Positions 38,264 to 55,188 of a stretch of DNA of 64,000 nucleotides are shown here, piece after piece. The stretch lies in contig OY970175.1 of NCBI GenBank assembly GCA_963707865.1, positions 208,748 to 272,747 of the forward strand, read 5' to 3'. The DNA is from an uncultured bacterium. Lineage in GTDB: Bacteria; Patescibacteriota; Minisyncoccia; UBA6257; 2-01-FULL-56-20. A program made the position numbers and the translations under genes. The first letter of the stretch is position 1; each line of letters begins with the position of its first letter. The notes under the pieces were generated by a model that worked only from the letters and a program-made list of their open reading frames with translations, made no database searches and was not told the origin of the DNA.

Positions 38264-38274
38264 AGCATTAGGAC

Positions 38275-38877: not shown

Positions 38878-39150
38878 ATGGATGCAAAGATAAAAAGGCG
38901 AAGCCTGCATCGCGCCAAAATCCTTGAGGGGCAGATGAAGGGGCTTACCAAGACCATTGAAAGCGAGAAATACTGCGTTGACCTCTTGCTGCAATCGCTC
39001 TCTATCCAGCAATCGTTGAAAAGCCTCAGCGGCTTGCTTCTTGAGAACCACATTCGAACGCATGTGAAACATCAGCTCCGCAATCCGAAACAAGAAGACA
39101 AAGCGGTCGCGGAGCTCCTTAAAATCTTCACCCTCTCAAATAAGTTATGA
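38878..39150 (+). CDS. csoR: CsoR/RcnR-family metal-sensing transcriptional repressor
   Basis: 'KYCVDLLLQ' and His residues in the DUF156 pattern; 90 aa. Confidence 0.7.
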   Translation: MDAKIKRRSLHRAKILEGQMKGLTKTIESEKYCVDLLLQSLSIQQSLKSLSGLLLENHIRTHVKHQLRNPKQEDKAVAELLKIFTLSNKL

Positions 39151-39563: not shown

Positions 39564-39642
39564 CGAAAACCCTTCGCTTCTTGTTCATGGCATAAACCGC
39601 TCGCACGCGGTTTTTTCGTCCGTAAATTCATCACACAAAGCA

Positions 39643-40137
39643 ATGAATACAAAAACAATCATTATTATCGTCCTCATCGCCGTCGCCGTGCTCGGATTCA
39701 TGGTATGGGGATACGGCAGAATGGCCGGGCCGACGCAGGCCCAGCTCAGCGAAAAGAGCTCGCTTACCGCAGCCGAGACATTCCACGACTTTGGCACGAT
39801 CTCAATGGCGAACGGCAAGGTGGATCACATGTTCCAGATAACGAATCCGACTGGCGGGGACATCACGATCAACAACCTCCAGACATCGTGCATGTGCACG
39901 ACGGCCTACATCGTGGACGGCAGTTCTAAAGAAGGCCCGTTCGGCATGCCTGGCATGGGGGGCGCGACGGCAGCCAACGATGTCATTCCCGCCCACGGCA
40001 CGCAGAGCATTGACGTCGTCTTTGATCCTGCGGCCCACGGCCCCGCTGGCGTGGGAAACATTGATCGTTTTATCTATGCGACCGAAGAGAACGGCGGGAC
40101 GCTCCAACTTGAAATCAAAGCAGTCGTGACCCCATAG
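39643..40137 (+). CDS. DUF1573-like membrane-anchored protein
   Basis: N-terminal TM; 'FQITNPTGGDITINNLQTSCMCTTA' resembles DUF1573 consensus. Confidence 0.55.
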   Translation: MNTKTIIIIVLIAVAVLGFMVWGYGRMAGPTQAQLSEKSSLTAAETFHDFGTISMANGKVDHMFQITNPTGGDITINNLQTSCMCTTAYIVDGSSKEGPFGMPGMGGATAANDVIPAHGTQSIDVVFDPAAHGPAGVGNIDRFIYATEENGGTLQLEIKAVVTP

Positions 40138-40142
40138 CCCCC

Positions 40143-40922
40143 ATGAAACGATTTCTCATAACATTGGGGACTGTTGCCCTTGCGATCGCGGGCATCGTAT
40201 TCCTCCAGCACAGCCCGTTCGTCAGTTCGTTCCTTTGGAATGTGAGCAACAAGGGCTCGTGGCTTCTGCCGCTCGTTCTCGTGGCAGCGCTCCTCGACAG
40301 CGTACACCCGTGCTCGTTCTCGATCCTCCTCATCACGATTGCGTTCCTCTTCGGGATGCAGATGGAACGGAAGAAAATCCTACAGATCGGCGGCGTCTAC
40401 ATCGCGGGCATCTTCGCGGCATACTTCCTGATCGGCCTCGGCATCCTTCACGCGCTTGTGCTCTTCAACGTACCGCATTTCATGGGCAAGCTCGGCGCGG
40501 TGCTGCTCATTGCCTTCGGCTTGATTAATATCGTGAATGAGTTCTTTCCGCAGTTCCCGATAAAACTCCAACTGCCCGCCGCCGCGCATCGGAGCATGGC
40601 CAAGCTCATGAACCGGGCATCAGTTCTCGCGGCGTTCGGGTTGGGACTCCTTGTAGGCGCGTGCCAGTTCCCGTGCATGGGCGGGCCATACCTTATGGTC
40701 ATCGGACTCCTGCACGACAAAATGACCTACTTCGCCGGATTCGGATATCTTGCGCTTTATAACCTTATCCTCATCCTCCCGCTCATCGTCGTGCTCTGGA
40801 TCGCGTCGGACAAGATTGTCGTCCTCAAGGCGCAGGAATGGAAAAAGGAAAAAACAAAGGGCGTGAGATTGTGGGCCGGGATCATCATGATCATTCTCGG
40901 TTTCTTCATCTTCTGGCTCTAA
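40143..40922 (+). CDS. ccdA: CcdA/DsbD-family thiol-disulfide transmembrane protein
   Basis: Six TM helices; 'DSVHPCSFSIL' and second TM Cys 'GACQFPCMG'. Confidence 0.7.
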   Translation: MKRFLITLGTVALAIAGIVFLQHSPFVSSFLWNVSNKGSWLLPLVLVAALLDSVHPCSFSILLITIAFLFGMQMERKKILQIGGVYIAGIFAAYFLIGLGILHALVLFNVPHFMGKLGAVLLIAFGLINIVNEFFPQFPIKLQLPAAAHRSMAKLMNRASVLAAFGLGLLVGACQFPCMGGPYLMVIGLLHDKMTYFAGFGYLALYNLILILPLIVVLWIASDKIVVLKAQEWKKEKTKGVRLWAGIIMIILGFFIFWL

Positions 40923-40934
40923 CCAACAAAAACC

Positions 40935-41426
40935 ATGGATAAAAAACCAACATTAGAGGAGTTTCTCGGTAAGGTAGAATCCTTCAAAGAAAAGGCGGGC
41001 GTGGATCTTTCGACGACGGAAGACCTGAGCATCGCCGTCATGAACCTCGTGAGCTTAGAAGAGCATTTCTTCTTCACGGCTGCCAAAACCAAGAAGGACG
41101 AATACTTCGATACGGTCCAAGAGATTCGCGCGTTAAGAAAAGAGTTCCTTGCGCAGCTCATGCCGAATAACGAAGGCGAAACGTGGTGCATTGCAAAGCA
41201 TCTTTTGGCAGCGACGATGCGCCTTACCGAGGTCGGCAACAAACTGCAATCCGAAGGAGAAAAGAAAAAGGCAAAGCAGACTTTCGAGGGGGCATATAAA
41301 GTGTATTCGCTTTTCTGGGCGCTCAAGTTGAAGTTGATCAAAGGTCAAAATATAAAGGAGGCGGCAAAGAGCAGCTCAACGGTTGAGGATCTGGTGAACA
41401 AGCTCGCCGATTGCTGCGATGAATAA
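40935..41426 (+). CDS. Hypothetical protein (163 aa)
   Basis: ORF in operon context. Confidence 0.45.
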   Translation: MDKKPTLEEFLGKVESFKEKAGVDLSTTEDLSIAVMNLVSLEEHFFFTAAKTKKDEYFDTVQEIRALRKEFLAQLMPNNEGETWCIAKHLLAATMRLTEVGNKLQSEGEKKKAKQTFEGAYKVYSLFWALKLKLIKGQNIKEAAKSSSTVEDLVNKLADCCDE

Positions 41427-42357
41427 CATGGAAAACGAAAATCAGACGGAAATCAAAAGCAGCGGCAACGGCATCATTATCGGCAGCGCGATGATCGCCG
41501 CCGCGCTCCTTATCTTTTCCGGCGTCCAGCTGTATATCGCGAGGATCTCTCCGAGATCCGTAACGGCGGAAACTGCTGCCGTCCCGGCGAATCAAAACAT
41601 CAACGCGTTGCAGGAGGAAGTGATACCGGCGAATGGCATCGTCTTGCCCGTTACGTGGGGCGATCTCGGAAAACAGATGGTTCAAGCGGGAGTCATCGAT
41701 GAAGCGCAGTTCGCGGTGCTCTACGCGGAGCGGGGCGGACTACCGCAGGACATGAAAGCGCTGCTCGATTCGCCGAATAACGGGCAGATCACAATAACAT
41801 CGCAGAACTCCGGCATTCTCCTCAATCTCTTGTGGGCGTTGGGCCTCGGCAACAAGAACCCGATTCTTGAAAGCGGGCCGATGCAGAACCCGCAATACGG
41901 CGGCGCGGGGAACTTCGCCTCGACGGGCGGGTGGACGCTCGCTCAGGGCAAAGCGATGGCCCACTACGACGCGCACCAGTTCGTGACGCTCACGCCAAGC
42001 GAGCAGTCGCTCGTGGAAAGCGTCGCGAAGAACATCTACCGTCCGTGCTGCGGCAACTCGGTGTATTTCCCCGATTGTAACCACGGCATGGCGATGCTCG
42101 GCCTGCTTGAACTCATGGCTTCGCAGGGCGCGTCGGAGGACCAGATGTACGAAACCGCGCTCGCGGTGAACTCATATTGGTTCCCCGACAACTACCTGAC
42201 CATAGCGCAATACTTGCAGGGCAAAGGCATTGATTGGAAAACGGTAAATCCAAAAGACATTTTGGCAGCCAACTTCTCAAGCGCACAGGGATACTCGCAG
42301 ATCGTCGCGCAAACGCAGCCCGTGCAGAACAAATCGTCGGGCGGATGCGGGGTATAA
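41419..42357 (+). CDS. Membrane-anchored hypothetical protein with Cys motif (RPCCGNSVYFPDCNHG)
   Basis: N-terminal TM; stop overlaps start of P-type ATPase (TAATG). Confidence 0.5.
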   Translation: MNNMENENQTEIKSSGNGIIIGSAMIAAALLIFSGVQLYIARISPRSVTAETAAVPANQNINALQEEVIPANGIVLPVTWGDLGKQMVQAGVIDEAQFAVLYAERGGLPQDMKALLDSPNNGQITITSQNSGILLNLLWALGLGNKNPILESGPMQNPQYGGAGNFASTGGWTLAQGKAMAHYDAHQFVTLTPSEQSLVESVAKNIYRPCCGNSVYFPDCNHGMAMLGLLELMASQGASEDQMYETALAVNSYWFPDNYLTIAQYLQGKGIDWKTVNPKDILAANFSSAQGYSQIVAQTQPVQNKSSGGCGV

Positions 42358-44489
42358 TGAAACCCATGGACCATATGAACCGCGAAAACGCGAAAACATA
42401 TACCTGCCCGATGCACCAGGGAGTAGTTCAGGACCATCCCGGGCTGTGCCCCGAATGTGGAATGAACCTTATTCCCGCAAAGCCCCAAAAATCAAAGATG
42501 CAGATTGATCACGGCGGGCATGGCACCGCATCCTTCGACAAACACGAAGGCCACAGCACGAACATCTTCAGAACGAAGTTCTGGGTGAGTTTGGTGTTGA
42601 GTATCCCGCTCGTGCTGTATTCGGACATGACGCAGGCGATTTTCCATTGGAGCGCGCCCGCGTTCCCGGGATTGGTCTACATACAGTTCGTCCTCGCCTC
42701 AATCGTTTTCCTCTACGGCGGATGGGTTTTCATTGCAAGCGCGTGGCGCGAACTTAAGGCGCACTTGCCCGGCATGATGACACTGATCGCGCTTGCGATC
42801 ACGACGGCATATGCGTGGAGCGTCTACGCCGTTCTTGCGAGCCGGAGCGATACGCTCTTTTGGGAGCTTGCCACGTTGATTACGATCATGCTTCTTGGGC
42901 ATTGGATTGAGATGCGGGCGGTGGGCGGTGCCCAGAGCGCATTGAAAGAACTCTCGAAACTCCTGCCGGACACGGCGGAGGTCGTGCGGGGAGACCGCAC
43001 GGAGGTTGTCCCACTCGCCGAACTTCGCGAAGGCGATATCGTCCTCGTGAAGCCGGGCGGAAAGATCGCTGCGGATGGCGAAATCGTTGAAGGCGAATCA
43101 TCTGTTGATGAGTCGCTCGCGACGGGTGAATCGAAACCGGTTACGAAACAAAAAGGAAGCGCGGTTATCGCTGGCACGGTGAACGGCGACGGAGCACTCA
43201 AAATAAAAGTGACGAAGATCGGAGAGCATACGTTCCTTGCGGGGGTGATGCGGCTTGTCGCCGAAGCGCAATCATCGAAGTCGCGCCTGCAGGTGCTTTC
43301 TGACCGCGCGGCGTTCTACCTTACGCTGGTCGCCGTTGGGGCGGGCGTTATTACGGTCATCGCGTGGATCGCGGCGGGAGGCGGGACCGCATTCGCCATT
43401 GAACGGCTTGTCGCGGTCCTCGTGATCGCGTGTCCGCACGCTCTGGGACTCGCCGTGCCGCTCGTTGCATCCATCTCCACGACCAAGGCCGCCAAGAATG
43501 GGTTCCTCGTGAAACAGCGGCTTGCCCTCGAGGCCGCGCGGAACGTTGACGTGGTTCTTTTTGACAAGACAGGTACGCTCACGAAAGGCGAATACGGCGT
43601 AACGGATGTATGGCCGATCGGCGTGAAAGACAAACACGAGGTTATTCAGCTTGCCGCATCGGTTGATGCGTATTCCGAGCATCCGGTCGCGAAGGCCATC
43701 GTCGCCTATGCGCGTGCTGAAAACATTCCGCTTGCCGATATCAAGGACTTCGCGCGGATCCCCGGCAAGGGTTCGCAGGCGCGGATAGGCGAGGCGGTAG
43801 TCGTCATTGGAGGCGCGGGCGTGGTTGAAGGGAAAAATGTTTCGTTGCCTGGCGAGATTGCAGCGGAACACAAAAAGGGCAAGACGATCATCTATGTGCT
43901 TCGCGACGGTACGCTTGTGGGTGTACTTGCCCTTGCGGACATCATTCGTGACGAATCGCGCGAGGCGATCAAAACGCTGAAAGGCATGGGAGTTGACGTC
44001 GCCATGATCACGGGCGACGCGGACGATGTGGCAGCGTGGGTGGCGGGGGAGTTGGGTATAAAAGAGTATTTTGCGCGAGTTTTGCCTAGTGAGAAATCGG
44101 AAAAGGTAAAATTACTGCAGTCAAAAGGAAAACGAGTCGCGATGGTGGGGGATGGAATAAATGACGCGCCCGCGCTCACACAGGCGGAGCTTGGTATCGC
44201 AATCGGCGCAGGGACGAATGTGGCGATCGAATCAGCCGGTATTATTCTTGTAAAGAATGATCCGAGGGACATCCCAAAGATCATTACACTTTCGCGCCTT
44301 ACCTACGCGAAGATGATGCAAAATCTCTTCTGGGCCGCAGGTTACAACGTGGTCGCCATCCCGCTTGCTGCGGGAGTACTTGCTTCGCGCGGCGTATTGC
44401 TTTCACCCGCCTTGGGAGCAGTCTTCATGTCCCTGAGCACGGTGATCGTTGCCGCGAATGCGATGCTATTGCGCCGAAAGGAATTATAA
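42357..44489 (+). CDS. P1B-type heavy-metal (copper) translocating ATPase, CPH-motif subclass
   Basis: N-terminal 'CPMHQGVVQDHPGLCPECGM' metal-binding domain, 'CPH' in TM6, 'DKTGTLT', 'GDGINDAP'. Confidence 0.9.
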   Translation: MKPMDHMNRENAKTYTCPMHQGVVQDHPGLCPECGMNLIPAKPQKSKMQIDHGGHGTASFDKHEGHSTNIFRTKFWVSLVLSIPLVLYSDMTQAIFHWSAPAFPGLVYIQFVLASIVFLYGGWVFIASAWRELKAHLPGMMTLIALAITTAYAWSVYAVLASRSDTLFWELATLITIMLLGHWIEMRAVGGAQSALKELSKLLPDTAEVVRGDRTEVVPLAELREGDIVLVKPGGKIAADGEIVEGESSVDESLATGESKPVTKQKGSAVIAGTVNGDGALKIKVTKIGEHTFLAGVMRLVAEAQSSKSRLQVLSDRAAFYLTLVAVGAGVITVIAWIAAGGGTAFAIERLVAVLVIACPHALGLAVPLVASISTTKAAKNGFLVKQRLALEAARNVDVVLFDKTGTLTKGEYGVTDVWPIGVKDKHEVIQLAASVDAYSEHPVAKAIVAYARAENIPLADIKDFARIPGKGSQARIGEAVVVIGGAGVVEGKNVSLPGEIAAEHKKGKTIIYVLRDGTLVGVLALADIIRDESREAIKTLKGMGVDVAMITGDADDVAAWVAGELGIKEYFARVLPSEKSEKVKLLQSKGKRVAMVGDGINDAPALTQAELGIAIGAGTNVAIESAGIILVKNDPRDIPKIITLSRLTYAKMMQNLFWAAGYNVVAIPLAAGVLASRGVLLSPALGAVFMSLSTVIVAANAMLLRRKEL

Positions 44490-44602
44490 AATCTATGCCT
44501 AGTTCTAAGTCCAGAACCCGTACCGGATTTTAAATTTAGAACCGACGATTGAGAGGACAGTAAAATGACGCTCTCCGGTCTCCCACGATACTGCGCTGAC
44601 TG

Positions 44603-44628
44603 TGGCTGCGGGGTTTGGATTCGAACCG
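44603..44628 (-). repeat. Degenerate 3'-end fragment of a tRNA (T-loop through acceptor-CCA), similar to the 3' end of tRNA-Gln at 48990..49060; putative att-site remnant
   Basis: Minus strand 'GGTTCGAATCCAAACCCCGCAGCCA' vs tRNA-Gln 3' end 'GGTTCGAATCCAAGCCCGGCAGCA'; no matching 5' half so not a functional tRNA. Confidence 0.5.
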
Positions 44629-44821
44629 TGTGGGTCGCCCCGTTACCCTCGGCATTTGATTTTCCTTGATTTATCTATATGCCGCGGAGTAACCCTCGCC
44701 CCTACGAAGAGAGCCGTAGTGGCGGCATATCCTCTCTCCCTCCATCGCTGGTTGTCTACCCTAGAGAAGAAGAACCGCTGAAACAATCAGCGATTTTTCT
44801 TCTATCTCGCCCTGCCCTCTT

Positions 44822-47008
44822 TCACTTCACCGTCAACGTGACGCTGGTTGTGCTCGAAAGCGAACCGCTCGTTCCTTTTATAGTAAGCACGTAAGTACCT
44901 GTAGGCGTTCTGAAACCGACATTGACCCTAAGCGTAGAAGAGGACTTGGTAGGATTCGTACTGAAGCTTACGCTTGTGCCGGAAGGAAGTCCGCTAACAG
45001 AGAGGGTTACCGATCCGGTAAATCCTCCTGCGGGGGTCACGGTAACCTTATAGCTTCCGCTTCTCCCACGAGAAACGCTAAGCGATGATGGGCTCGCCGA
45101 AAGTGAGAAGCTTTGTGCGGATTGTTTTACGAGCGTTGCTGTCGCCGTGTGTGTCAGGGCACCGCTTACGCCGGTAATAGTAATCGGATACGATCCGGGA
45201 ATTGTCGTCGAACTCACTGTTATCGACAACGCCGATGAGCTGCCACTTGCCGGGTTAGGATTGAAGCTGCCTACCGTTCCTGCGGGAAGGCCGCTTACGG
45301 ACAGCGCAACCGCCGAGCTAAATCCTCCACTCTGAGCAATGGTGATCGCATAATTCGCCGTCCCCCCTGCGGCTGGCACTGTCATCGAAGCAGGACTAAC
45401 CGAGAGGGAGAAATCAGGCGTGGAGACGATAAGAGTTGCGGTCGCCGTATGCGAGAGTAAACCACTCGTCCCAGTAATAGTCAAAAGATAGGTGTCAGTG
45501 GGCGTGGTGGAGGCGGTGCTCACTATCATAGCGGAAGAACCGGGAGCGGTCACTGATGGCGGATTGAAGCTCGCCGTGGCACCCGTCGGCAACCCGCTCA
45601 CGCTAAACGTAACCGTTCCGGTGAATCCTACTAATGGCGTGGCGGTGACGGTGTAACTGGTGCTTGTCCCCGTTAGTACTGTTTGAGAGGATGGGGTAAC
45701 GGCAACAGTGTAGTCGGGCGTAGGATAGAAAGCGGTTGTTCCTTTAGGAGTGCCTAAACCGGTTGGACCATCGTAGCCTACCTGTGCAGTACAGAGATAA
45801 CTGCCGCCACAAGAACCGTTACTCCCCGTGGTTATATCATTCAGGTTAGAAGAATTACCATAGGTATAAGGCAGTGAATTAGCCATAACGCCGCTCGGAA
45901 CTCCGTGCAAGGTATATACCGCAGCGACGAAGGGGGATGATAGGCTTGTTCCACCTACTTGGACCCAACCGCCATAGCCATAGCTATCATAGACCGCGGC
46001 ACCGGTCGCCGGATCGGCATCGGCCGAAACGTCATTTATGGTTCGATAAGCGCAAGATGGATCGTGCTGCCAGGTAGGTTTCGCTTCCTGCTGCGTACTG
46101 CAGCCGCTGCCAGTTCCGCCGTATTGATTGTTCCAAACGCTCTCACTTAGGTAGGAATTGCCACTCAGCAACAAGGTCGTTCCGCCAACTGCGGTCACGT
46201 ATTGTGAGGCCGCTGGATAGAGAGTCCCGTAACCGCTATCTCCCGCGCTGAAAGTGAAAGCGACGCCAGTCTTGTTAAAGTGGCTGTCGTAGGCTGCCTC
46301 GCCGGAGAATTCACTTCCACCCCAAGAGCCGGATACCGCGGTCGCGTTATTCGCCACAGCCGTGTCTATTGCCGTAAGTAAATCGGTGAAACTGTTTGAA
46401 TTTGCTTCAACGAGGAGGATGCTGCAGTTCTCACAAGTTGCATGAGCAATCTCAACGTCGAGCGAGATTTCAAGAGCCCAGGATGAGTTTGGTGACGGCA
46501 AAGGAGAAGTACTTCCGTTCTGGTTCATTTTTTCAAAACAAGCCGACGTAGAAGTGGCGATTGAGCCGCTACAGGTCGGCAGCTGAGAGATGCCATAGGT
46601 CGAGCTGTAGGTACTGAGATCACTCGCGATATTCGGGTCATCATAAGCGTCAACGATGGCAATTACCGGCGGCAGAGCTGAAGTGGATGATCCGGTAAGA
46701 TCGTAGGCTCCAAGAAACTGGGCTGGGCCGTAACCGATCGGCAACGCATTAGCTTTTACCCTGCCGCTTGAATCTACGACTACCCTGGCAGTACAGGCAA
46801 CATTGCCTCCCGTAGCGACATCACACACTCTTTTATTCTGCACCTGTGAAATTTCAGCGAGTTTGTCTTTGACCATTTGTTGGAATTGGTCCTGGGTGCC
46901 CCTGAACCAATCTGGTCGAGTCTCGGCATGGACGATAGAGGCGCTTCCGATCAAAGCAGCGGTGCTGATGAATACGACTGAAACTATGAATTTATTTATT
47001 CTAGTCAT
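44822..47008 (-). CDS. Secreted S53 (sedolisin/kumamolisin-like) serine peptidase with three C-terminal Ig-like repeat domains
   Basis: Signal peptide; 'AIVDAYDDPNIASDL', 'WALEISLDVE' (E..D), 'SAGDSGY', 'GGTSLSSPFVAAV' catalytic Ser; repeated ~90-aa 'SVSGLP.G...F....TGTSG.L..T' modules. Confidence 0.7.
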   Translation of the reverse strand: MTRINKFIVSVVFISTAALIGSASIVHAETRPDWFRGTQDQFQQMVKDKLAEISQVQNKRVCDVATGGNVACTARVVVDSSGRVKANALPIGYGPAQFLGAYDLTGSSTSALPPVIAIVDAYDDPNIASDLSTYSSTYGISQLPTCSGSIATSTSACFEKMNQNGSTSPLPSPNSSWALEISLDVEIAHATCENCSILLVEANSNSFTDLLTAIDTAVANNATAVSGSWGGSEFSGEAAYDSHFNKTGVAFTFSAGDSGYGTLYPAASQYVTAVGGTTLLLSGNSYLSESVWNNQYGGTGSGCSTQQEAKPTWQHDPSCAYRTINDVSADADPATGAAVYDSYGYGGWVQVGGTSLSSPFVAAVYTLHGVPSGVMANSLPYTYGNSSNLNDITTGSNGSCGGSYLCTAQVGYDGPTGLGTPKGTTAFYPTPDYTVAVTPSSQTVLTGTSTSYTVTATPLVGFTGTVTFSVSGLPTGATASFNPPSVTAPGSSAMIVSTASTTPTDTYLLTITGTSGLLSHTATATLIVSTPDFSLSVSPASMTVPAAGGTANYAITIAQSGGFSSAVALSVSGLPAGTVGSFNPNPASGSSSALSITVSSTTIPGSYPITITGVSGALTHTATATLVKQSAQSFSLSASPSSLSVSRGRSGSYKVTVTPAGGFTGSVTLSVSGLPSGTSVSFSTNPTKSSSTLRVNVGFRTPTGTYVLTIKGTSGSLSSTTSVTLTVK

Positions 47009-47074
47009 TTTGTATGTTTTTGATCGACGTTATATCAATTAACATCATAACATCTCAGGGGTTGTTCCGCAATC

Positions 47075-47443
47075 TTAGAGAGGTACCGCTTGTCCGGTAG
47101 GTACGCAAACCCTAGGTGACTGTTGACCCGCTATTATCGGCCCGGGCTGCATACACGAATAACCGGCGGGGCAACCACTATTATTCTTGCAGATCAGCAT
47201 ACCATTGTAATGGGTCGCGTTCGGCGGCGCTGTCTTGGTAGTTCCATTTTTTGAGGTCTGACTTGTACTCGCCACAGTGTTGGATGTCGATGTTGATCGC
47301 GCAGCAGTCAAGGGCAGGGCGGAATAATCTTTAGCCTGCTGATAGAGGGAGCCGAATTTGAATCCGATGAAGAACGTCGCGATAAAAACTACTATCGTGA
47401 GGGTCCTCGAGTACCACGTTACTTTATTCCATTCGATAGTCAT
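47075..47443 (-). CDS. Small membrane protein sharing N-terminal EWNKVTWYS+TM motif with ORF 1371..2084
   Basis: 'MTIEWNKVTWYSRTLTIVVFIATFFIGF'; C-terminal Cys-rich 'CKNNSGCPAGYSCM'. Confidence 0.6.
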   Translation of the reverse strand: MTIEWNKVTWYSRTLTIVVFIATFFIGFKFGSLYQQAKDYSALPLTAARSTSTSNTVASTSQTSKNGTTKTAPPNATHYNGMLICKNNSGCPAGYSCMQPGPIIAGQQSPRVCVPTGQAVPL

Positions 47444-47545
47444 CTATTTATATTAGATCTTTTTGCGACTGTATCTTATGAACTTAGATTATAGCACGAA
47501 CCATATCTGCTCCATACGTGAGCCTTTCCAAGCCTTGTAGGGTGC

Positions 47546-48907
47546 TTGACTTCCTTGACTGTGGCGGCACCCTTGTCCTTGATGAATACAAACCAAGGGT
47601 TGATGGGGGCCGCGACCCAACAAAAAGTGCCGGCTTCCATAAAGGTCAGATATTGCCTGTACGCGAGAAAAAGCAGCGAGCAGGACGAGCGTCAGGCGCT
47701 TTCCATCGAGAGTCAGGTAAAGGAGATGAAGCAGATCGCGGAACGCGAGGAACTGGATGTCGCGGAGATACGGCAGGAAAGCCATTCAGCAAAGAACTCC
47801 GGAGGACGTCCGGTGTTCAACAAAATCCTTGATGACGTGAGGAACGGCACGTTCAACGGTATCCTCACTTGGGCACCCGATCGCTTGAGCCGCAATGCTG
47901 GGGATTTGGGAAAGCTCGTTGATCTTATGGACCAAGGCCTGCTCGTGGGCATCCGTACCTTCGGGCAGAAATTTGCCAATACCCCGAACGAAAAGTTCTT
48001 GCTCATGATATTATGTTCACAGGCGAAGCTTGAAAACGACAATAAAGGTCAAAATGTGATGCGTGGCCTCCGGGCGAGGGTCGAGACCGGCCTCTGGCCG
48101 GGCAAAGCTCCGTTGGGATATCTGAACCAGATGCTGCGGGACAAGAAATGCGAAGTCATCGTGGACAAGAAGCGGGCGCCCGTCGTGAGGCTGATTTTCA
48201 AAAAAGCGGGCGAGGGCTGGAGCGGGAGAAAGATCTACCGCTGGCTGAAGGACGAGAAGCAGTTTAGAACCCGCGGCGACAAATCTCTTAGCCTGAGCGG
48301 TATCTACCGCGTTCTCACGAGCCCCTTCTTCTATGGCATGCTGGAATTTCCCAGAAAGAGCGGAAACTGGTATCAAGGGAAACATCAACCGCTCATCTCT
48401 GAGGAACTTTTCCGAAATGTGCAACTTCAGCTGAAACGCGAGGAAACGAGGAGAAAAGCAAGCGAGTTCGCTTTCACCAAACTCATTGCCTGCGGCATCT
48501 GCGGATCGCACATCATCGCCGAGCAGAAATTCGTCAAAAGAAAAGACGGCACGACCACCCGCTGTGTCTATTATGGATGTAGCAGATCAAAAGACCGTTC
48601 CTGCAAGAACCACTACATGAAAGAGGACGATTTCATGGCCAAGATCGCTGACATCATCGATGCGGTGAAGCTCAACGAACTGGGCGTCGCGATGCAGTGC
48701 GAGGAGGAGATCAAGCGGCTGAGGAACTTATCGACAGTAATGGGCGTAGAGGGGACTCACGGCATTGACCTGGAAAAGATCAATGTCAAAACCTACGCAA
48801 AGCACCTTCTCAAGAACGGCAGCTCGTCTGAAAAGAGAATTCTCCTTTCGCATCTCCGGAGCATGCTGATATACAAGAACAAAACGATTGAAGTTGCAGG
48901 TGAGTAA
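47546..48907 (+). CDS. Large serine recombinase (resolvase/invertase catalytic domain + recombinase domain + zinc ribbon)
   Basis: 'YARKSSEQDERQALSIESQ' catalytic Ser region; 'CGICGSHI...CVYYGCS' zinc ribbon; true start likely internal (~47600). Confidence 0.85.
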   Translation: MTSLTVAAPLSLMNTNQGLMGAATQQKVPASIKVRYCLYARKSSEQDERQALSIESQVKEMKQIAEREELDVAEIRQESHSAKNSGGRPVFNKILDDVRNGTFNGILTWAPDRLSRNAGDLGKLVDLMDQGLLVGIRTFGQKFANTPNEKFLLMILCSQAKLENDNKGQNVMRGLRARVETGLWPGKAPLGYLNQMLRDKKCEVIVDKKRAPVVRLIFKKAGEGWSGRKIYRWLKDEKQFRTRGDKSLSLSGIYRVLTSPFFYGMLEFPRKSGNWYQGKHQPLISEELFRNVQLQLKREETRRKASEFAFTKLIACGICGSHIIAEQKFVKRKDGTTTRCVYYGCSRSKDRSCKNHYMKEDDFMAKIADIIDAVKLNELGVAMQCEEEIKRLRNLSTVMGVEGTHGIDLEKINVKTYAKHLLKNGSSSEKRILLSHLRSMLIYKNKTIEVAGE

Positions 48908-48989
48908 TAAAAATATTTAACCAACGAGGCCCTGCGGGTCGCAAAAGAACCTCATATTACGAGAACACGCCGATAGAAAAAAGTCAATG

Positions 48990-49060
48990 CTGCCGGGCTT
49001 GGATTCGAACCAAGATGACGACTTCCAGAGAGTCGCATCCTACCATTAGATGACCCGGCA
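48990..49060 (-). tRNA. tRNA-Gln (anticodon CUG)
   Basis: Minus strand 'TGCCGGG TC ATCT AATGGTA GGAT G CGACT CTCTGGA AGTCG TCAT CTTGG TTCGAAT CCAAG CCCGGCA G'; U1-A72 pair as in bacterial tRNA-Gln; CCA not encoded. Confidence 0.85.
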
Positions 49061-49126
49061 ATGTCGCAACCGTACCACCGTGCTGCGGTTGCGTTTCCTA
49101 TAATATAACAAAAATCCCTCGGGCGT

Positions 49127-50227
49127 CTATAGATTCTCAATGATCGTGATCTCAAGCGGCACGATCGCGAAGGGCGAGTACCGCATTTCGGCGTACGCGC
49201 GGATAAGGGATTTGATGAACTTCACGAGGAATGCGGCGTCGGCGGGCGCAGCAAGTTTCTTCACTGCCGCGATCTCGTCGCGTGTGAGCTCCTTTTCAAA
49301 AATTTTATCAAGCGAAGGGTTCACTTTGAGGGAGAGCACCTTTCGCAGATAGTGGATAAGGTCTCTCGCGAACTGCACGAGGTTATATCCTTCGTCGGTG
49401 AGGAGCGAAACGTAGGCAAGCGCGCCCTTCGCATCCTTCGCGAGTATGAGTGCGGCAAGCTCATGGATTTTCTTGAGGCCGGTACGGCCCGTCACGCGTT
49501 CCACGGTCGCGAGGTCGATGTGTGTTGCGAGAGACGCGATCTGGTCCAGGAGCGAGATGGCGTCGCGGAGACTTCCTTCACCTGCCGCCGCAATGAGTTC
49601 CAGTGCCGGTTCGTCGATTCCTATTTTTTCCCCTTTCGCGATCGCCGCGAGCATTTCCATGATATGGGTTTTAGAGATCTTTTTGAAGGTGAACCGTTGT
49701 GCGCGCGAGGTGATCGTGGCCGGCAGTTTTTCGTACTCAGTCGTTGCAAGCACGATCACCGCGTGGCGCGGCGGTTCCTCCAATGTTTTCAAAAGCGCGT
49801 TGAAGGCGAAGCCAGTCAGCGAATGCGCTTCATCAATGATGTACACCTTGTGGGCGGCCGTGGCGGGGGAGGTGCGGATGCTCTCGCGCAAATTGCGGAT
49901 CTCGTCAATGCCGCGGTTGGAGGCAGCATCTATTTCAATCACGTCAAACGAGTTCTGCGTGTCTATCTCGCGGCATTCGCGACACTCATTGCACGGTTCG
50001 CCGAGTTTCGCGAACTCAGGGTCGCCCCGCCGTTTTTCGCAGTTGAGAAGCTTTGCCAAGAGCCGCGCCGTGGTCGTTTTCCCCGTCCCGCGCGGCCCGT
50101 GGAAGATATACGCTTGCCCCAAACGCCCCGCTTTCGCGGCGTTTTTGAGGATCAACATGTTCGTTTCCTGTCCGAGAACCTCGTCCAGTTTTTTGGGGCG
50201 ATACTTTCGGTAGAGCGCTTGTGCCAT
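49127..50227 (-). CDS. dnaX: DNA polymerase III subunit gamma/tau (short form)
   Basis: 'GPRGTGKTT', zinc module 'CNECRECRE', 'IIDEAHSLT', sensor-2 'GSLRDAISLLDQ'. Confidence 0.9.
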   Translation of the reverse strand: MAQALYRKYRPKKLDEVLGQETNMLILKNAAKAGRLGQAYIFHGPRGTGKTTTARLLAKLLNCEKRRGDPEFAKLGEPCNECRECREIDTQNSFDVIEIDAASNRGIDEIRNLRESIRTSPATAAHKVYIIDEAHSLTGFAFNALLKTLEEPPRHAVIVLATTEYEKLPATITSRAQRFTFKKISKTHIMEMLAAIAKGEKIGIDEPALELIAAAGEGSLRDAISLLDQIASLATHIDLATVERVTGRTGLKKIHELAALILAKDAKGALAYVSLLTDEGYNLVQFARDLIHYLRKVLSLKVNPSLDKIFEKELTRDEIAAVKKLAAPADAAFLVKFIKSLIRAYAEMRYSPFAIVPLEITIIENL

Positions 50228-50289
50228 TTACGAAAATTATAGGCAATCCCGTTGATTTCGGCAATTTTTTTCCATATGATGGAAGAGAC

Positions 50290-51702
50290 ATGAAATTGAT
50301 ATCAGGAGTCGTCTTTATTTGCGTTATTCTTGCCGCAGCATTTTTTTTATCCTTTTCTTCAAACAATGTCGCAGTGAACCCCGCGACCAGCGCCGATATC
50401 GCAGGCGTCGTGACGTCCAGAACGAACGGAACGGCGGCCCTTTCCGCAACGTCTTCAGCGTCTTCCAGCCCGCTTCTTAGAGAATCGGAGGCGCCACAAC
50501 TACCTCCCAACGTGGCCGCCGCATCGTCTGCAGGTGGGGATGACATCGCTCCCCAGCCGAAGCTCGCAAACCCTCCTTCTATAGTGAAGGGAATTTATTT
50601 GACCGCGTGGGTTGCGGGATCTCCCGGCAGGGTGCAATCAATCATCAATCTTCTTAAGAGTACCGGTCTCAATGCGGTCGTCATTGACCTCAAAGATTAT
50701 TCCGGCTACGTCTCGTACGCGATGGACGTGCCGCAGGTGAAGGCGTCCGGTGCGGAGAGCGAGATCCGCATTGCGCGTCCGAACGCGCTCATCAAAGAAC
50801 TGCACGACAACGGCATTTACGCGATCGGCCGCATCACCGATTTTCAGGATCCGATCCTTGCGAAGGCACATCCGGAGTGGGCGCTGCGCAATAAGACAAC
50901 GGGCGGCGTTTGGAAGGACAATAACGGGCTTGCGTGGATGGATCCCGCCGCGACCCCCGTGTGGGATTATCTCGCCACAATCGCGAGTGACGCCTTTGGC
51001 CGCGGCTTTGACGAAATTCAATTTGACTACATTCGTTTCGCCTCTGACGGATCGCTTGGCAATATTTCCTATCCATATTGGAATGGGAAGACGCCCATGG
51101 CGACCGTGATTGCCGACTATTTCAAATTCCTGCGCGCGCAATTCCCGAACGAAAAACTCTCCGCCGACCTCTTCGGGCTTTCAACGATCAATAACGATGA
51201 CCTTGGCATCGGCCAGGTCATCCAAAGCGCCTACGAATATTTTGATTACGTGTCGCCGATGGTTTACCCATCCCATTATGCAAGTAGATTTTTGGGATAT
51301 AAAAGCCCCGCTTCGTATCCGTACCAAGTGATCAGTTATTCGCTTACACATGCGATCGCAAAGCTTGTAGCGATGGGGAATAGCAATTCAACTATCGCGA
51401 CTGCAACGGGCACCACGACCAGCACCACTACAACCAGTACTACCGCCAGTACCACCGCAACCAGCACGAAGGCGGCAGCGCACTCGCCATTCAATCTCGG
51501 CTATATCCCGCAGACAAAGCTCCGCCCGTGGCTTCAGGATTTTGACCTGTACGGCGTGCCGTACACGCCCCAAATGGTCGCGCTTGAAAAGCATGCGGTT
51601 TACGATACGTTGGATACCACGACCACGAGCCAGTACTACGGTGGCTGGCTTCTGTGGGATGCCGCGAACAGCTACACCGCCGCGGACCTCGGGGCGGAAT
51701 AA
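50290..51702 (+). CDS. Membrane-anchored putative glycoside-hydrolase-like TIM-barrel protein (GHL/DUF4015-type)
   Basis: N-terminal TM; 'GIYLTAWVAGSP...NAVVIDLKDYSGYVSY...MDP' pattern typical of DUF4015; start at 50290 (ORF track 50221). Confidence 0.55.
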   Translation: MKLISGVVFICVILAAAFFLSFSSNNVAVNPATSADIAGVVTSRTNGTAALSATSSASSSPLLRESEAPQLPPNVAAASSAGGDDIAPQPKLANPPSIVKGIYLTAWVAGSPGRVQSIINLLKSTGLNAVVIDLKDYSGYVSYAMDVPQVKASGAESEIRIARPNALIKELHDNGIYAIGRITDFQDPILAKAHPEWALRNKTTGGVWKDNNGLAWMDPAATPVWDYLATIASDAFGRGFDEIQFDYIRFASDGSLGNISYPYWNGKTPMATVIADYFKFLRAQFPNEKLSADLFGLSTINNDDLGIGQVIQSAYEYFDYVSPMVYPSHYASRFLGYKSPASYPYQVISYSLTHAIAKLVAMGNSNSTIATATGTTTSTTTTSTTASTTATSTKAAAHSPFNLGYIPQTKLRPWLQDFDLYGVPYTPQMVALEKHAVYDTLDTTTTSQYYGGWLLWDAANSYTAADLGAE

Positions 51703-51706
51703 AGTC

Positions 51707-52456
51707 ATGCCGTACGAAATCAAAACGGAACAGTTCAGTGGACCACTTGAGAAACTTCTGGAACTTATTGAAGCCGAGAAGTTAGGGGTAAGTGAGGTGA
51801 GCCTGGCGAAGGTCACTGATGGCTTTTTGAAATACCTTGAACGGTTCCGGCAAGGCGGGGGAGAGGGCGAGGAGAAATTCCGCGTGGACTTGCGCGTCCT
51901 AGCCGACTTTATCTCTGTCGCAAGCAAGCTCATTTTTTTGAAGTCAAAGCATCTTTTGCCTGGGCTTGCGCTTATGGAGGATGAGGAAACGGACATCAAA
52001 GAATTGGAAGAACGCTTGAGGCGGTACCAGGCGCTGAAGCCGGTACTGAAACATTTCAATAAGCTTTGGCGCGAAAGCCACCGTTCCTACAGCCGGCCGT
52101 ACTTTTTGGGGCGCGGGACGGGGCTTGCCGCGGGACAGAAGGTCTTCTACCCGGGCGACAATTTGGATACGCCCACGCTCCAGGCGGGGCTTCTCAAAAT
52201 CTTTGAAATCGTAAAAACCTATGCCTTTGAAACGGAAACCATCAAAGAAAAGATCATTACGCTTGAAGAGAAGATTTCCGAAGTGCTCAACCGCGTCAAA
52301 GCCGAGGGCGACCTGCAATTCCGACGGCTTTCGGGTGAAAAATCGCGCTCGGAAATGATCGTGCTCTTCCTCGCGATTCTCCACCTCGCGCGCGAACAGC
52401 TCATCCTTCTTGAGCAAATAGATAATTTTTCTGATATAATGGTCAAGAAAAAATGA
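51707..52456 (+). CDS. scpA: Segregation and condensation protein A
   Basis: 'FSGPLEKLLELIEAEKL', C-terminal winged helix; start at MPYEIK (ORF track 51542). Confidence 0.85.
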   Translation: MPYEIKTEQFSGPLEKLLELIEAEKLGVSEVSLAKVTDGFLKYLERFRQGGGEGEEKFRVDLRVLADFISVASKLIFLKSKHLLPGLALMEDEETDIKELEERLRRYQALKPVLKHFNKLWRESHRSYSRPYFLGRGTGLAAGQKVFYPGDNLDTPTLQAGLLKIFEIVKTYAFETETIKEKIITLEEKISEVLNRVKAEGDLQFRRLSGEKSRSEMIVLFLAILHLAREQLILLEQIDNFSDIMVKKK

Positions 52457-53067
52457 GTGACGCGCCCGATCAGAAATTAGCTTCCTTGGAAGCGCTGCTT
52501 TTCATTCACGGCGAACCGCTTTCGTATAAAAAGATAGAGTCGGTATTAAATTTGAAGAAGGGCGAAGCCGAATCGCTCGCGGAGGAATTAAAAAAGCATT
52601 TGGAAACGCCGGAGCGGGGATTGCATTTGGTCGCGGATAAAGAAAAGATCCAGCTCGCGACAAAGCCCGCATTTGGCAAGCTTTTGGAGGACTTTGTGAA
52701 AGACGAGCTTACGGAAGAACTCACGCCGGCGTCGCTTGAGGCGCTTTCCATCGTGGCGTATCTCGGTCCCATCTCGCGCGCGAAATTGGAATATCTGCGC
52801 GGGGTGAATTCCATCGTGATCTTGAGAAGTTTGATGATCCGCGGGCTCATAGAGCGCCTGCCGGATCCCGAGCACCCCTCCGGATTCCTGTACCGGCCGA
52901 CGTTTGAACTTATGAAACATCTCGGCATTGCCGCAGAAAAAGACCTGCCGGAGTACGAAAGATTCCAAGAGCTTTTGAAAATCTTTGAAACGCAAAACGT
53001 GGCGGGACCGGTGCCGACCGAACCGGCATCGCCAATCTCGCCTCCGGAACAACCAACCCATGAATAA
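52453..53067 (+). CDS. scpB: Segregation and condensation protein B
   Basis: 'LEALLFIHGEPLSYKKIESVL' ... 'LEALSIVAYLGPISRAKLEYLRGV'; overlaps scpA stop. Confidence 0.85.
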   Translation: MSDAPDQKLASLEALLFIHGEPLSYKKIESVLNLKKGEAESLAEELKKHLETPERGLHLVADKEKIQLATKPAFGKLLEDFVKDELTEELTPASLEALSIVAYLGPISRAKLEYLRGVNSIVILRSLMIRGLIERLPDPEHPSGFLYRPTFELMKHLGIAAEKDLPEYERFQELLKIFETQNVAGPVPTEPASPISPPEQPTHE

Positions 53068-54103
53068 CACCTTCGCAAAATTTGCGTTTTTGGTCGTCGT
53101 GATCGGTGCGGTGCTGTTTTCAAAGATGATGTATCCGGCGGCCGCTCCCGCTGCGAACCTTGCTTCAGCGAACAATGTGATACGAGGGAACGCTTCAAGT
53201 GCGGTGCCAATGTTCATTTTGCCTTCTGCCGCCGTCACTGCCCACGGTGCGAGCGGCGTCGGTAGTGTGGGTGATGTGGAAAGCGACACCCAAGCCAAAG
53301 CGGACGTTCCCAAAATGAACACTCCCGCAGCGAACATTCCCGCGATACTTTCCGGGCAGAGCGCTCCGCCGCCTGTGCTCACGGACGCGGCATCGCTCGT
53401 CGCCGATCTTACGAGCGGGACATCGTTTGCATCGGCAAACGGCGATGCGCGGTGGCCGACCGCCTCTATCGCAAAGCTTATGACCGCGACCGTTGTGGAA
53501 GACAAACTCAATGTGGCGACCGCGACCGCGACTGCGATCACCATCACCGAAAATATGTTCGCGGCCGACGTGACCGAGCAGGCGCTCGTGGTCGGCGGCA
53601 GGTATGCGGTATCCGATTTGTTGCGCGCCATATTGCTTCCCTCGTCCAACGTCGCTGCGGAAGCGCTCGCATCGTTCTACGGCAGAGAAGCATTCCTTGC
53701 GGAGATGAACGCGCGCGCCGCGGTATGGGGAATGAACAATACCCATTTTGACGACCCCTCCGGCATTTCCGCGGGCGACGAATCCACCGCGAACGACCTT
53801 TTGAAGCTCGCAGAGAAGTTATATGCCGATTATCCGCAGATTCTTCGGATTACAAGAACTCCGCAGGCCACCATTACCGAGGAGAATTCTGGAAAGAAAA
53901 TCTTATTGAAAAGTATCAATGAGTTCGCGGGCGATGCGGATTTCGTCGGCGGGAAGACCGGCTATACCGATCAGGCGGATGGCAACCTTCTCTCGGTGTT
54001 CCGCAACGGCGGGAAGCCGCTCGTCGTCATTGTCCTGGGGAGTAGCGCTCGCTTTGACGATACGAAAGCGTTGTATGATTGGTATAAAGCAAATTTCAAG
54101 TAA
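53060..54103 (+). CDS. D-alanyl-D-alanine carboxypeptidase (S11, PBP5/6-like)
   Basis: SxxK 'SIAKLMT', SxN 'SSN', 'KTG'; N-terminal TM; start at MNNTFAKF. Confidence 0.75.
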   Translation: MNNTFAKFAFLVVVIGAVLFSKMMYPAAAPAANLASANNVIRGNASSAVPMFILPSAAVTAHGASGVGSVGDVESDTQAKADVPKMNTPAANIPAILSGQSAPPPVLTDAASLVADLTSGTSFASANGDARWPTASIAKLMTATVVEDKLNVATATATAITITENMFAADVTEQALVVGGRYAVSDLLRAILLPSSNVAAEALASFYGREAFLAEMNARAAVWGMNNTHFDDPSGISAGDESTANDLLKLAEKLYADYPQILRITRTPQATITEENSGKKILLKSINEFAGDADFVGGKTGYTDQADGNLLSVFRNGGKPLVVIVLGSSARFDDTKALYDWYKANFK

Positions 54104-54109
54104 TACTGC

Positions 54110-55168: not shown

Positions 55169-55188
55169 GGTGAAAGGGTGTTTTCTGT

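Follow-up and report, generated by a model that had tools for sequence, protein, structure and literature searches.

Positions 44605-48988 of the window, the whole stretch of 64,000 nucleotides analysed here, are very probably a 4,384-bp integrative island in a chromosome of Patescibacteria (Minisyncoccia/Paceibacterota). The island lies immediately after the host tRNA-Gln(CUG) gene and would have been inserted there by its own large serine recombinase (LSR). We put the probability of this reading at about 0.85, a joint figure for the island, its insertion by its own LSR and the att mechanism proposed below. The first-pass annotation had bracketed an element of about 4.4 kb that included the tRNA-Gln gene; the island itself is real, while the tRNA gene is host DNA and lies outside the element. 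The features of the region are the following.

44490..44604, minus strand: native flank of tRNA-Gln (B' side of attR), now parted from the tRNA by the element; homology to the relative L002
44605..44627, minus strand: 23-nt mimic of the tRNA-Gln 3' end, which runs from the T-loop to position 74 and is proposed as left half-site of attP; direct repeat of 48989-49011 with 21/23 identical positions
44628..44675, minus strand: conserved element end, the P arm, AAATCAAGGAAAATCAA...GCGACCCACAC, adjoining the mimic without a gap; conserved in nine elements
44773..44795, minus strand: terminator-like hairpin after the peptidase gene; consensus scan only
44822..47008, minus strand: predicted secreted S53 (sedolisin/kumamolisin-like) peptidase with three C-terminal repeats of about 100 aa; kumamolisin match and motifs
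47075..47443, minus strand: 122-aa protein with one predicted N-terminal transmembrane helix and a Cys-rich C-terminus; from the translation
47546-48907 (ORF; probable gene 47582..48907), plus strand: LSR, presumed integrase of the element; Resolvase, Recombinase and Zn_ribbon_recom domains
48908..48988, minus strand: conserved element end, the P' arm, ATTGACnnTTnnCTATCGGCGTGTTC...TGCGACCCGCAGGG, from the tRNA 3' end to the LSR stop codon; sister elements
48989-49011, minus strand: last 23 nt of tRNA-Gln, proposed left half-site of attB; crossover within positions 71-74 (48989-48992)
48989..49060, minus strand: host tRNA-Gln(CUG); ARAGORN, and Rfam tRNA with 54.3 bits

A tRNA-Gln site without the element, which the first-pass annotation had proposed to look for in relatives, was found in L002 (OY970382), a related complete genome whose dnaX is 92% identical to that of the window. 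L002 is collinear with window positions 48988-61261; the match runs unbroken from dnaX through the tRNA gene and ends at the tRNA 3' end. Homologues of the LSR, the peptidase and the membrane protein are absent from L002, and the sequence directly after its tRNA-Gln is the homologue of the window flank that follows the 23-nt mimic. The two flanks show the same 12-nt offset and a core with 24/30 identical positions. Their local alignment score of 35 compares with 15.7 +/- 2.2 for shuffled sequences, and none of 2000 shuffles reached 35. This comparison shows a presence/absence polymorphism with a precise empty site, and it bears out the earlier proposal of a site-specific integration at tRNA-Gln of an LSR element whose cargo is a peptidase and a small membrane protein. 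Relatives with the protease and membrane-protein genes but no recombinase at this locus had been named as evidence against such an integration; no relative carries those genes here. The whole 11 kb from the aldolase gene to tRNA-Gln differs between the window and L002.

The tRNA-Gln(CUG) gene on the minus strand is intact, as first described, and relatives without the element have the same 3' end. The second copy of its 3' part, in the same orientation, is also real, with 21/25 (or 21/23) identical positions and not the 22/25 given at first. No tRNA 5' half and no other RNA family was detected at this fragment by ARAGORN or Rfam, in agreement with its description as lacking a 5' half, and it is not part of another structured RNA as far as these searches tell. 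The 'CCA' following it had been counted as a retained feature, but carries no weight because CCA is not encoded in the tRNA genes of this lineage.

The LSR gene was correctly placed close to tRNA-Gln, its stop codon being 81 nt from tRNA position 74. Its product contains the Resolvase (PF00239, 1.2e-20, residues 38-182), Recombinase (PF07508, 3.5e-14) and Zn_ribbon_recom (PF13408, 8e-7) domains, with about 75 residues after the zinc-ribbon match, and the nucleophile motif YARKS is seen in the translation. The likely start codon is the ATG at 47582 or at 47603; a database copy with 100% identity (P0001, 434 aa) starts at 47603. Among solved structures, SPbeta integrase complexes come closest (E=6e-12, aligned residues 20-358). 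Among named NCBIfam models CcrB scores highest (E=9e-40), and assignment to the Ccr proteins was rejected with 136.8 bits against a cut-off of 900 for CcrB and 61 against 700 for CcrA. At least 8000 relatives are found at E<=1e-30. The LSR is the only recombinase found in the element, which contains no tyrosine integrase. The LSR is presumably the catalyst of the insertion.

The cargo described at first, a secreted S53 peptidase with three repeats and a small membrane protein, is likewise recovered. The peptidase matches nine PDB kumamolisin chains (E=3e-18 to 3e-16, residues 162-424) and its translation shows the motifs EISLDVE (ExxLDxE) and GGTSLSSP (GGTSxxxP). The Pfam S8/S53 model gives no match at 1e-3. 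By homology and the Ser-Glu-Asp motifs the protein belongs to family S53. Its N-terminus is signal-peptide-like, and the C-terminal repeats are matched by NF058595 in three stretches, the DNA repeats being spaced 300 nt apart. The 122-aa protein has a hydrophobic helix and no family match in Pfam or NCBIfam. No recombination directionality factor or transfer function was found in the 4.4 kb, and none of the three ORFs is phage-like in domain and homology searches, which returned no structural or packaging genes of a prophage. The composition of the element does not differ from that of its flanks. Present-day activity of the window copy can only be presumed; the copy may be fixed or inactive, since it is known from one contig only. 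Just beyond the fragment lies a CsoR...CopA copper-resistance cluster without a recombinase of its own.

The association with tRNA genes extends through the LSR family. In all 11 distinct full-length LSRs sampled at 60% identity or more, among them that of the window, a tRNA-Gln or tRNA-Ser gene follows in convergent orientation 81 nt to 2.6 kb downstream; at IMG/VR loci with 42-59% LSR identity, a downstream tRNA was present in 13 cases and convergent in all 13. Nine elements of 2.7-10.2 kb share the P arm, the mimic and the P' arm, with unrelated cargo. L132, for example, carries a diversity-generating retroelement, L133 a Mo-oxidoreductase with UDG and L136 MscL with a PhoD-like protein; among the kinds of cargo seen are surface and secreted proteins, channels, restriction-modification and helicase modules. 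The P arm is kept across the nine elements, which differ in cargo and tRNA target, and the block GCGACCCAC-RY-GGTTCGAATCC is invariant among them. The P' arm is nearly identical in all sister elements, at tRNA-Gln and tRNA-Ser alike; those of the window and L132, whose LSR is 82% identical and which also sits at tRNA-Gln, align almost base for base. A search with the P' motif returned 10 metagenome contigs, in which it abuts the 3' end of tRNA-Ser or tRNA-Gln wherever a tRNA is callable. Tyrosine integrases were not found in the sister elements. Pattern scans of IMG/VR and JGI metagenome contigs returned no contiguous attP (P arm, mimic and P') and no excised circle.

The fragment had been taken for the displaced 3' end of the host tRNA. 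In a classic tRNA-gene island of this kind the crossover would be at the T-loop, where the left edge of the repeat lies, the element would supply a new tRNA 3' end, and the fragment would be the displaced host end decayed by two substitutions. We consider this improbable, although the layout matches Islander-type islands exactly, nothing separates the fragment from the native flank, the T-loop is the starting point of the repeat in every case and the strongest attP dyad lies near the junction of P arm and mimic (centre -25, sum 84 versus 42 +/- 10). Judged from the window alone, the two substitutions could be neutral decay. The sister elements, however, already contradict such a displacement. 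L139 and L148 carry one element, 99.88% identical over 7.4 kb, beside tRNA-Ser(GCU) and tRNA-Ser(CGA), whose 3' ends show differences as far as position 70; the tRNA ends next to P' must then be host DNA, because the same element adjoins different ones. L149 and L151 also share one element, and their identity stops exactly after mimic position 74. These boundaries place the crossover within tRNA positions 71-74, at the very 3' end of the gene, as far as aligned sequences can locate it; the exact dinucleotide would lie among these four positions.

The origin of the fragment can be read from base pairing as well. In each intact tRNA the 3' part and the 5' half of the gene pair perfectly, whereas the fragments fail to pair in this way and go with the lineage of the element. 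The fragments of L136, L137, L139, L149 and L150 have 3-6 differences from the adjacent tRNA and would be mismatched with the host 5' half; those of L132, L149 and L151 all read CCTGGTGCGG, while their host tRNAs differ; and the window mimic is mismatched at A65 and C69. The mimic stays with the sister element whatever the host tRNA or flank. Because one element occurs at two tRNA-Ser genes and only the intact tRNAs match their own 5' halves, we identify the fragment from these alignments as an element-borne mimic of the tRNA 3' end and part of attP, not displaced host DNA. Still less credible is that the fragment was left behind by an earlier, unrelated integration, for example when a tyrosine-integrase island carried in the copper-resistance cluster, the LSR being an independent insertion or a resident invertase/resolvase unrelated to the repeat. 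The 11 kb unlike L002, the position of the CsoR...CopA genes without a recombinase and the fact that tRNA genes are not known as targets of serine integrases would suit it, but the P arm, mimic and P' arm co-occur with the LSR clade in nine elements from different genomes, no tyrosine integrase is present in any of these, and the LSR always adjoins the tRNA in the same convergent orientation. That the repeat is a chance resemblance through the near-universal T-loop, in a variable intergenic or gene-content hotspot, can practically be dismissed. The generic T-loop motif GGTTCGAATCC does account for 11 of the 23 repeat positions, but 10 of the remaining 12 bases match as well. No other same-strand site in the window matches the tRNA 3' end as well as the mimic does (blastn-short E=0.004; 16/25 at the next best place), and the exact 11-mer has three copies in the 64 kb, two in tRNAs and one in the fragment, which argues against chance. 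The recurrence of the architecture with its conserved adjoining arms at nine loci already refutes it.

For an insertion by the island's own LSR, which we prefer, the following mechanism is proposed. attB would comprise the final ~21-23 bp of the tRNA gene, made up of T-loop, 3' T-stem and 3' acceptor strand, and the downstream flank. attP would consist of the P arm, the element-borne 23-bp mimic and the P' arm starting with ATTGAC. Strand exchange inside tRNA positions 71-74 would leave the tRNA gene intact, so that no replacement copy is needed. In the integrated state, the tRNA would abut P' and the LSR gene at attL and the mimic would abut the old tRNA flank at attR, and this arrangement would give rise to the imperfect 23-bp direct repeat. 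With the half-sites assigned in this way, the left half-sites of attP and attB in the family are identical at 17-23 of 23 positions. Strong dyad symmetry is absent around 71-74 in the reconstructed attP, whose strongest dyads are at about -25 and +4.5.

The mimic might also be re-copied occasionally from host tRNA genes and not be a fixed protein-binding site, the element thereby carrying part of its target specification in DNA; this idea is speculative. It is hinted at by mimics that equal real tRNA 3' ends, even in compensatory variants of the acceptor (that of L137 would be a perfect pairing partner for a GGTGACG acceptor, and that of L150 equals the tRNA-Ser(CGA) end of another host), by the use of at least two different tRNA-Ser genes by one element and by an invariant palindrome at the junction of P arm and mimic. 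This palindrome could be a second exchange point. If true, re-copying would allow retargeting among tRNA isoacceptors and hosts.

The island resembles Islander-type islands of tyrosine integrases in the intact tRNA at one end, the second copy of the tRNA 3' part as a direct repeat at the far end, the integrase gene beside the tRNA, the variable cargo and the target gene that stays functional. It differs in that the enzyme is an LSR, the repeat is not a displaced host fragment, the tRNA is not rebuilt and the crossover falls in the last four positions of the gene. SCC elements are small to medium-sized islands with swappable cargo, inserted by LSRs right at the 3' end of a conserved housekeeping gene that is not inactivated, and their imperfect flanking direct repeats are much longer than the 2-bp crossover. 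The window element shares these general features with SCC (SCCmec), as well as CcrB as the best-scoring named model for its LSR; however, SCC targets rlmH/orfX with a CcrA/CcrB pair, while a single recombinase, tRNA-Gln and a Patescibacteria host are found here. The phage serine integrases (SPbeta SprA/YokA, TP901-1, A118, Bxb1 and phiC31) have the same architecture of Resolvase, Recombinase and zinc ribbon. Their targets are protein-coding or intergenic, and no more than a short core is common to attP and attB. Compared with the few shared att bases typical of them, the attP/attB similarity of 21-23 bp is unusual, as is a tRNA gene as target. In the survey of Mageeney et al. 2020 (PMC7192596), 14 of 297 S-Int islands were predicted in t(m)RNA genes, a use by S-Int that was called previously unreported and in need of proof. 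That survey gives no clade, att structure or Patescibacteria case, whereas a whole clade with conserved att arms is described here.

What is new is this whole clade of compact LSRs (~440 aa) found consistently at the 3' ends of tRNA-Ser and tRNA-Gln. It is very abundant in Patescibacteria, as the number of relatives above indicates, and stands out by its well-defined att arms, the intact tRNA and the tolerance of one element for several isoacceptor targets. Serine integrases are the main tools for the insertion of large DNA cargo and are thought to avoid tRNA genes, and the T-loop and acceptor end targeted here are conserved in nearly all organisms. The result is a directly testable attP/attB pair. 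To our knowledge, the mobile elements of ultra-small, host-dependent bacteria are almost unknown, and the LSR family is likely a major vehicle of gene exchange in them. At least one family member, the distant L154, has a terminase gene alongside, which suggests that it is a prophage.

The element lies at window positions 44605–48988, directly after an intact tRNA-Gln(CUG) gene. The first-pass annotation had noticed the association of this tRNA with a large serine recombinase (LSR), an S53 peptidase and a repeat of the tRNA 3' end, and the tRNA calls, the domain matches and an alignment of the repeats confirm the observation.

44605–44627, same orientation as the tRNA: 23-nt copy of the tRNA 3' end, from the T-loop to position 74
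between repeat and tRNA: 728-aa protein with a kumamolisin (family S53) match, E = 3e-18, residues 162–424
between repeat and tRNA: 122-aa protein with a single transmembrane helix
47546–48907, plus strand: LSR ORF (Resolvase 1.2e-20, Recombinase 3.5e-14, Zn_ribbon_recom 8e-7)
48989/48990–49060, minus strand: intact tRNA-Gln(CUG) (ARAGORN and Rfam, 54.3 bits)

The LSR ORF contains the nucleophile motif YARKS, and the 434 residues of an identical database protein (P0001) make the ATG at 47582 or 47603 its probable true start. The LSR and tRNA-Gln genes are convergent, with 81 nt between the LSR stop codon and the tRNA end. The N-terminus of the 728-aa protein resembles a signal peptide and three repeats are found at its C-terminus; no family match was found for the 122-aa protein. 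The window copy, which is known from a single contig, has a full-length LSR ORF and intact ends, here called the P arm (abutting the 23-nt fragment) and the P' arm (between the tRNA 3' end and the LSR stop). The composition profile shows no contrast between element and flanks. The direct repeats 44605–44627 and 48989–49011 have the same orientation and are identical at 21 of 23 positions; a copy of the 3' part of the tRNA is therefore present as first annotated, but not at the 22/25 originally given. Within the window the fragment is the top match of the tRNA 3' end (E = 0.004; 21/25 vs 16/25 for the second-best match), and the exact T-loop 11-mer is confined to two tRNAs and the fragment. The 'CCA' beyond the fragment, mentioned in the first-pass annotation, has no significance, since CCA is not encoded in the tRNA genes of this lineage.

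The dnaX gene adjoining the tRNA matches metagenome-assembled Patescibacteria genomes (Minisyncoccia/Paceibacterota) with up to 92% identity. Among these relatives is a complete 888-kb chromosome, OY970382 (L002), which is collinear with window 48988–61261 at ~87% DNA identity. The collinearity ends one base past the tRNA 3' end and picks up again at the aldolase gene (window 36617–37981). The unbroken synteny from dnaX through the tRNA rules out that the intact tRNA was carried by the element. The intact tRNA-Gln of L002 is directly followed by a sequence homologous, without a change of offset, to the ~110 nt that lie beyond the fragment in the window, in tRNA orientation (AGTATCGTGGgagaCCGGaGaGCGTCATTT in the window vs AGTATCGTGGcattCCGGgGtGCGTCATTT in L002). 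The local alignment of the two scores 35, compared with 15.7 +/- 2.2 for shuffled sequences (0/2000 reach 35) and 14 for the P' arm as control. The ancestral order was therefore tRNA-Gln and then this flank; in the window the two are now 4,384 bp apart. The empty tRNA-Gln site in a related genome, which the first-pass annotation proposed to look for, is thus found in L002, where the flank directly follows an intact tRNA-Gln. An empty-site junction would read tRNA-Gln joined to CACAGTCAGCGC, and a circular junction would read the terminal GC of the 23-nt fragment joined to ATTGAC. The LSR, peptidase, small-protein and neighbouring CopA ATPase genes have no homologue in any of 16 related loci. 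The anticodon stem of tRNA-Gln(CUG) has several compensated differences between the window (48989–49060) and the related loci L001, L002 and L003, and its acceptor and T arms are identical between these ~87–92% identical genomes.

At least 8000 relatives of the LSR are found at E ≤ 1e-30, overwhelmingly in Patescibacteria. Genomic context was taken for 10 of the closest relatives (60–82% identity), and a DNA-motif scan added further copies. All 11 distinct full-length LSRs, the window's included, have a convergent tRNA gene downstream.

Loci of the LSR family: tRNA target, gap from LSR stop to tRNA, element length, and cargo (Pfam names for the relatives)
Window: tRNA-Gln(CUG); 81 nt; 4.4 kb; S53 peptidase, small membrane protein
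L132: tRNA-Gln(CUG); 81 nt; 10.2 kb; bAvd with reverse transcriptase, AAA_5
L149/L151: tRNA-Gln; element length 2.7 kb; LSR 5'-truncated
L133: tRNA-Ser(GCU); 92 nt; 6.3 kb; Mo-oxidoreductase, UDG, DUF488
L137: tRNA-Ser(GCU); 0.76 kb; 7.8 kb; Fic, AEP-TOTE helicase, PIF1
L139: tRNA-Ser(GCU); 0.8 kb; 7.4 kb; Fic, AEP-TOTE helicase, PIF1
L148: tRNA-Ser(CGA); element as in L139
L153: tRNA-Ser(GCU); gap 1.6 kb
L136: tRNA-Ser(GGA); 96 nt; 5.2 kb; MscL, DUF389, PhoD-like protein
L152: tRNA-Ser(GGA); gap 0.8 kb
L154: tRNA-Ser(GGA); gap 119 nt
L140: tRNA-Ser(CGA); gap 2.5 kb
L150: tRNA-Ser(UGA); about 0.1 kb; 4.3 kb

In nine elements the ends are conserved and the cargo varies. Directly after the tRNA end, these nine share the same P' arm, ATTGACnnTTnnCTATCGGCGTGTTC...TGAGG...TGCGACCCGCAGGG, whatever the tRNA. 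The P arm, AAAATCAAGGAAAATCAAT-(about 20 nt)-GCGACCCAC-RY, directly precedes the 23-nt tRNA-3'-like segment, which always starts with GGTTCGAATCC and ends with GC. The L132 element, whose LSR is 82% identical to that of the window, occupies the orthologous tRNA-Gln of a related genome, with dnaX and DUF4015 close by; both its arms align with those of the window and its cargo is wholly different. This cargo includes a diversity-generating retroelement module, bAvd with reverse transcriptase (L132 3048–4439). More distant LSR relatives (42–59% identity) are present in 51 IMG/VR contigs, 13 of which have a tRNA within 5 kb downstream of the LSR, convergent in 13/13 cases. Trimming of provirus boundaries may contribute part of this signal, but it does not account for the uniform tRNA orientation. 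Neither tRNA 3'-end repeats within 8 kb nor the P and P' motifs were found in these loci. Second, more distant LSR genes are seen at L133 (2345–3700; 56% identity) and L136 (4591–6318; 28%), 1.5–4 kb past the far end of the elements, and the one in L136 runs across the 23-nt segment; they may be neighbouring or tandem LSR elements.

The window considered alone agrees with the classic reading, in which crossover occurred inside the tRNA, the element supplied a new 3' end and the original host end was displaced to become the fragment: the native flank continues directly from the fragment, and the T-loop is where the repeat starts. However, the sister elements contradict it. One element, 99.88% identical over 7,427 nt, abuts tRNA-Ser(GCU) in L139 and tRNA-Ser(CGA) in L148, and the two tRNA 3' ends differ at several positions, the last being position 70. 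The same element at two different tRNA 3' ends means that the 3' end adjoining P' is host DNA. Over the host tRNA, P' arm, remnant element, P arm and 23-nt segment, L149 and L151 are 99.7% identical, and their divergence begins exactly after position 74 of that segment. All intact tRNAs have acceptor and T stems free of mismatches, formed with their own 5' strands, and the fragment would not pair with those strands of the host tRNA (in the window, A65 and C69 are mismatched). The fragments of L132, L149 and L151 share CCTGGTGCGG while their host tRNA-Gln ends differ, and L133, L136, L139 and L148 carry a common tRNA-Ser(GCU)-type fragment whatever tRNA-Ser adjoins.

The fragments thus track the element lineage. 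The two pairwise comparisons and the pairing led to the rejection of a T-loop crossover with a displaced host fragment. Together with the lineage data they show that the element itself carries the 23-nt segment as a mimic of the tRNA 3' end, with the crossover placed between position 70 and the 74/75 boundary and the tRNA never split. Positions 71–72 (CA in Gln, CC in Ser) are the sole non-palindromic dinucleotide in this interval common to both target types, and GC at positions 73–74 is common to 8/9 junction pairs; either could be the crossover dinucleotide, as both fit the data. In sequence, compensated variants of the acceptor part included, the mimics look like real tRNA ends. That of L137 has three differences from the common Ser type, all toward the state of the L139 host tRNA. 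A fixed crossover at 71–74 does not account for such variants, which leaves room for occasional re-copying of mimics from host tRNAs.

If the LSR paradigm applies, a dimer of the recombinase would bind attB with tRNA positions about 52–72 as the left half-site, and attP with the mimic in this role. These positions span about 21 bp, as is usual for an LSR half-site. The outer motif, bound by the zinc-ribbon domain, would be the conserved T-loop block, and the acceptor part would be the inner motif. The acceptor part is not the same in Gln-type and Ser-type elements (about 68% identity between their LSRs), and one element tolerates 4–5 substitutions in it (L139 vs L148). The left half-sites of attP and attB are identical at 17–23 of 23 positions in the same register, which is atypical for serine integrases. 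Also atypical is the dyad-symmetry scan, with a weak attB peak at -2.5, near position 72 (z about 3), and no peak at the junction of the reconstructed attP. Present activity of the window copy is putative, with the full-length LSR ORF and intact arms in its favour; two pattern scans, of IMG/VR and JGI metagenome contigs, found no free attP or circular junction. This three-gene element might, speculatively, pass between cells as excised circles taken up by natural transformation, or be mobilised by related prophages, a terminase gene being present in L154.

P arm and mimic mirror each other imperfectly, with an invariant palindrome, CGACC-N5-GGTTCG, across their junction (window 44628–44640 with 44617–44627; the same block in L132–L150), with a dyad centre at -25 and a sum of 84 vs 42 +/- 10. 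In Ser-type elements the outer GGAGGTGG is complementary to CCGCCTCC of the mimic. GCGACCC also occurs in the P' arm (window about 48930–48945) and in the tRNA–LSR spacers of the distant relatives L110 and L117. The junction palindrome may serve for the binding of an accessory protein. The idea that P arm and mimic form a structured or tRNA-like RNA was rejected for want of support (RNAalifold -4.5 kcal/mol, no compensatory pairs); Rfam and ARAGORN found nothing there, a weak ylbH match (E = 4.2) being noise. The Ser-type P' arm starts with ATTGACAAT, the counterpart of window 48980–48988, and has a perfect palindrome, ATTG-A-CAAT, 1–9 nt past the tRNA end. This is the second-strongest dyad of the reconstructed attP (centre +4.5) and is ruled out as the crossover because attR, the mimic abutting the old tRNA flank, lacks it. 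The flanks past the mimic in L132, L149, L137 and L133 have common AATACTTTTTATC..(A/G)AGACC motifs despite different tRNAs and genomes, which may be conserved tRNA terminators or P' remnants of a related element family.

The closest functional analogue of this element is SCCmec, an island of variable cargo that an LSR inserts at the very 3' end of a housekeeping gene and that is flanked by 15–18-bp imperfect repeats. CcrB is the top-scoring named model for the window LSR; the score is 137 bits vs a cut-off of 900, which places this LSR outside the Ccr proteins. Among solved structures, SPbeta integrase complexes are the nearest. Site-specific integrative islands as a kind are already known. 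Published serine-recombinase elements have very short flanking repeats and lie mostly inside protein genes, and in a large survey att cores were shorter for serine than for tyrosine integrases, the tyrosine enzymes favouring RNA genes. Mageeney et al. (PMC7192596) placed 14/297 predicted S-Int islands in t(m)RNA genes, described this usage as not reported before and noted that 'experimental proof will be required'; in the large LSR discovery paper of Durrant et al. (PMC10083194) the word 'tRNA' occurs nowhere. In the literature library searched, neither LSRs that target tRNA genes nor elements of this kind in Patescibacteria were found described. The combination of recombinase and target, the attP mimic with terminal crossover and the prevalence in Patescibacteria appear to be new.

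The aldolase gene is separated from the flank of the element by a further ~6.5 kb (window 37982–44489). This stretch contains a cold-shock-like ORF, CsoR (38878–39150), DUF1573, a CopA-type P-type ATPase (42234–44489) and several unknown ORFs; it has no recombinase, and no second tRNA-like fragment was found at the far end of this copper cluster. The whole stretch is missing from L002, where pilin-like, zinc-ribbon and cohesin-like genes occupy 6.9 kb in the same place. Since L002 differs here too, the region downstream of tRNA-Gln is a two-layer variable hotspot. On the other side, dnaX and the tRNA are immediate neighbours in the window, L002, L008 and L015, and a type IV pilus cluster of ~7.6 kb (PilB, PilC and pilins) separates the two in L001 (9453–16893), L003, L007, L016 and L132. 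Its patchy occurrence in close relatives suggests that this side of the tRNA has undergone rearrangement or loss as well.
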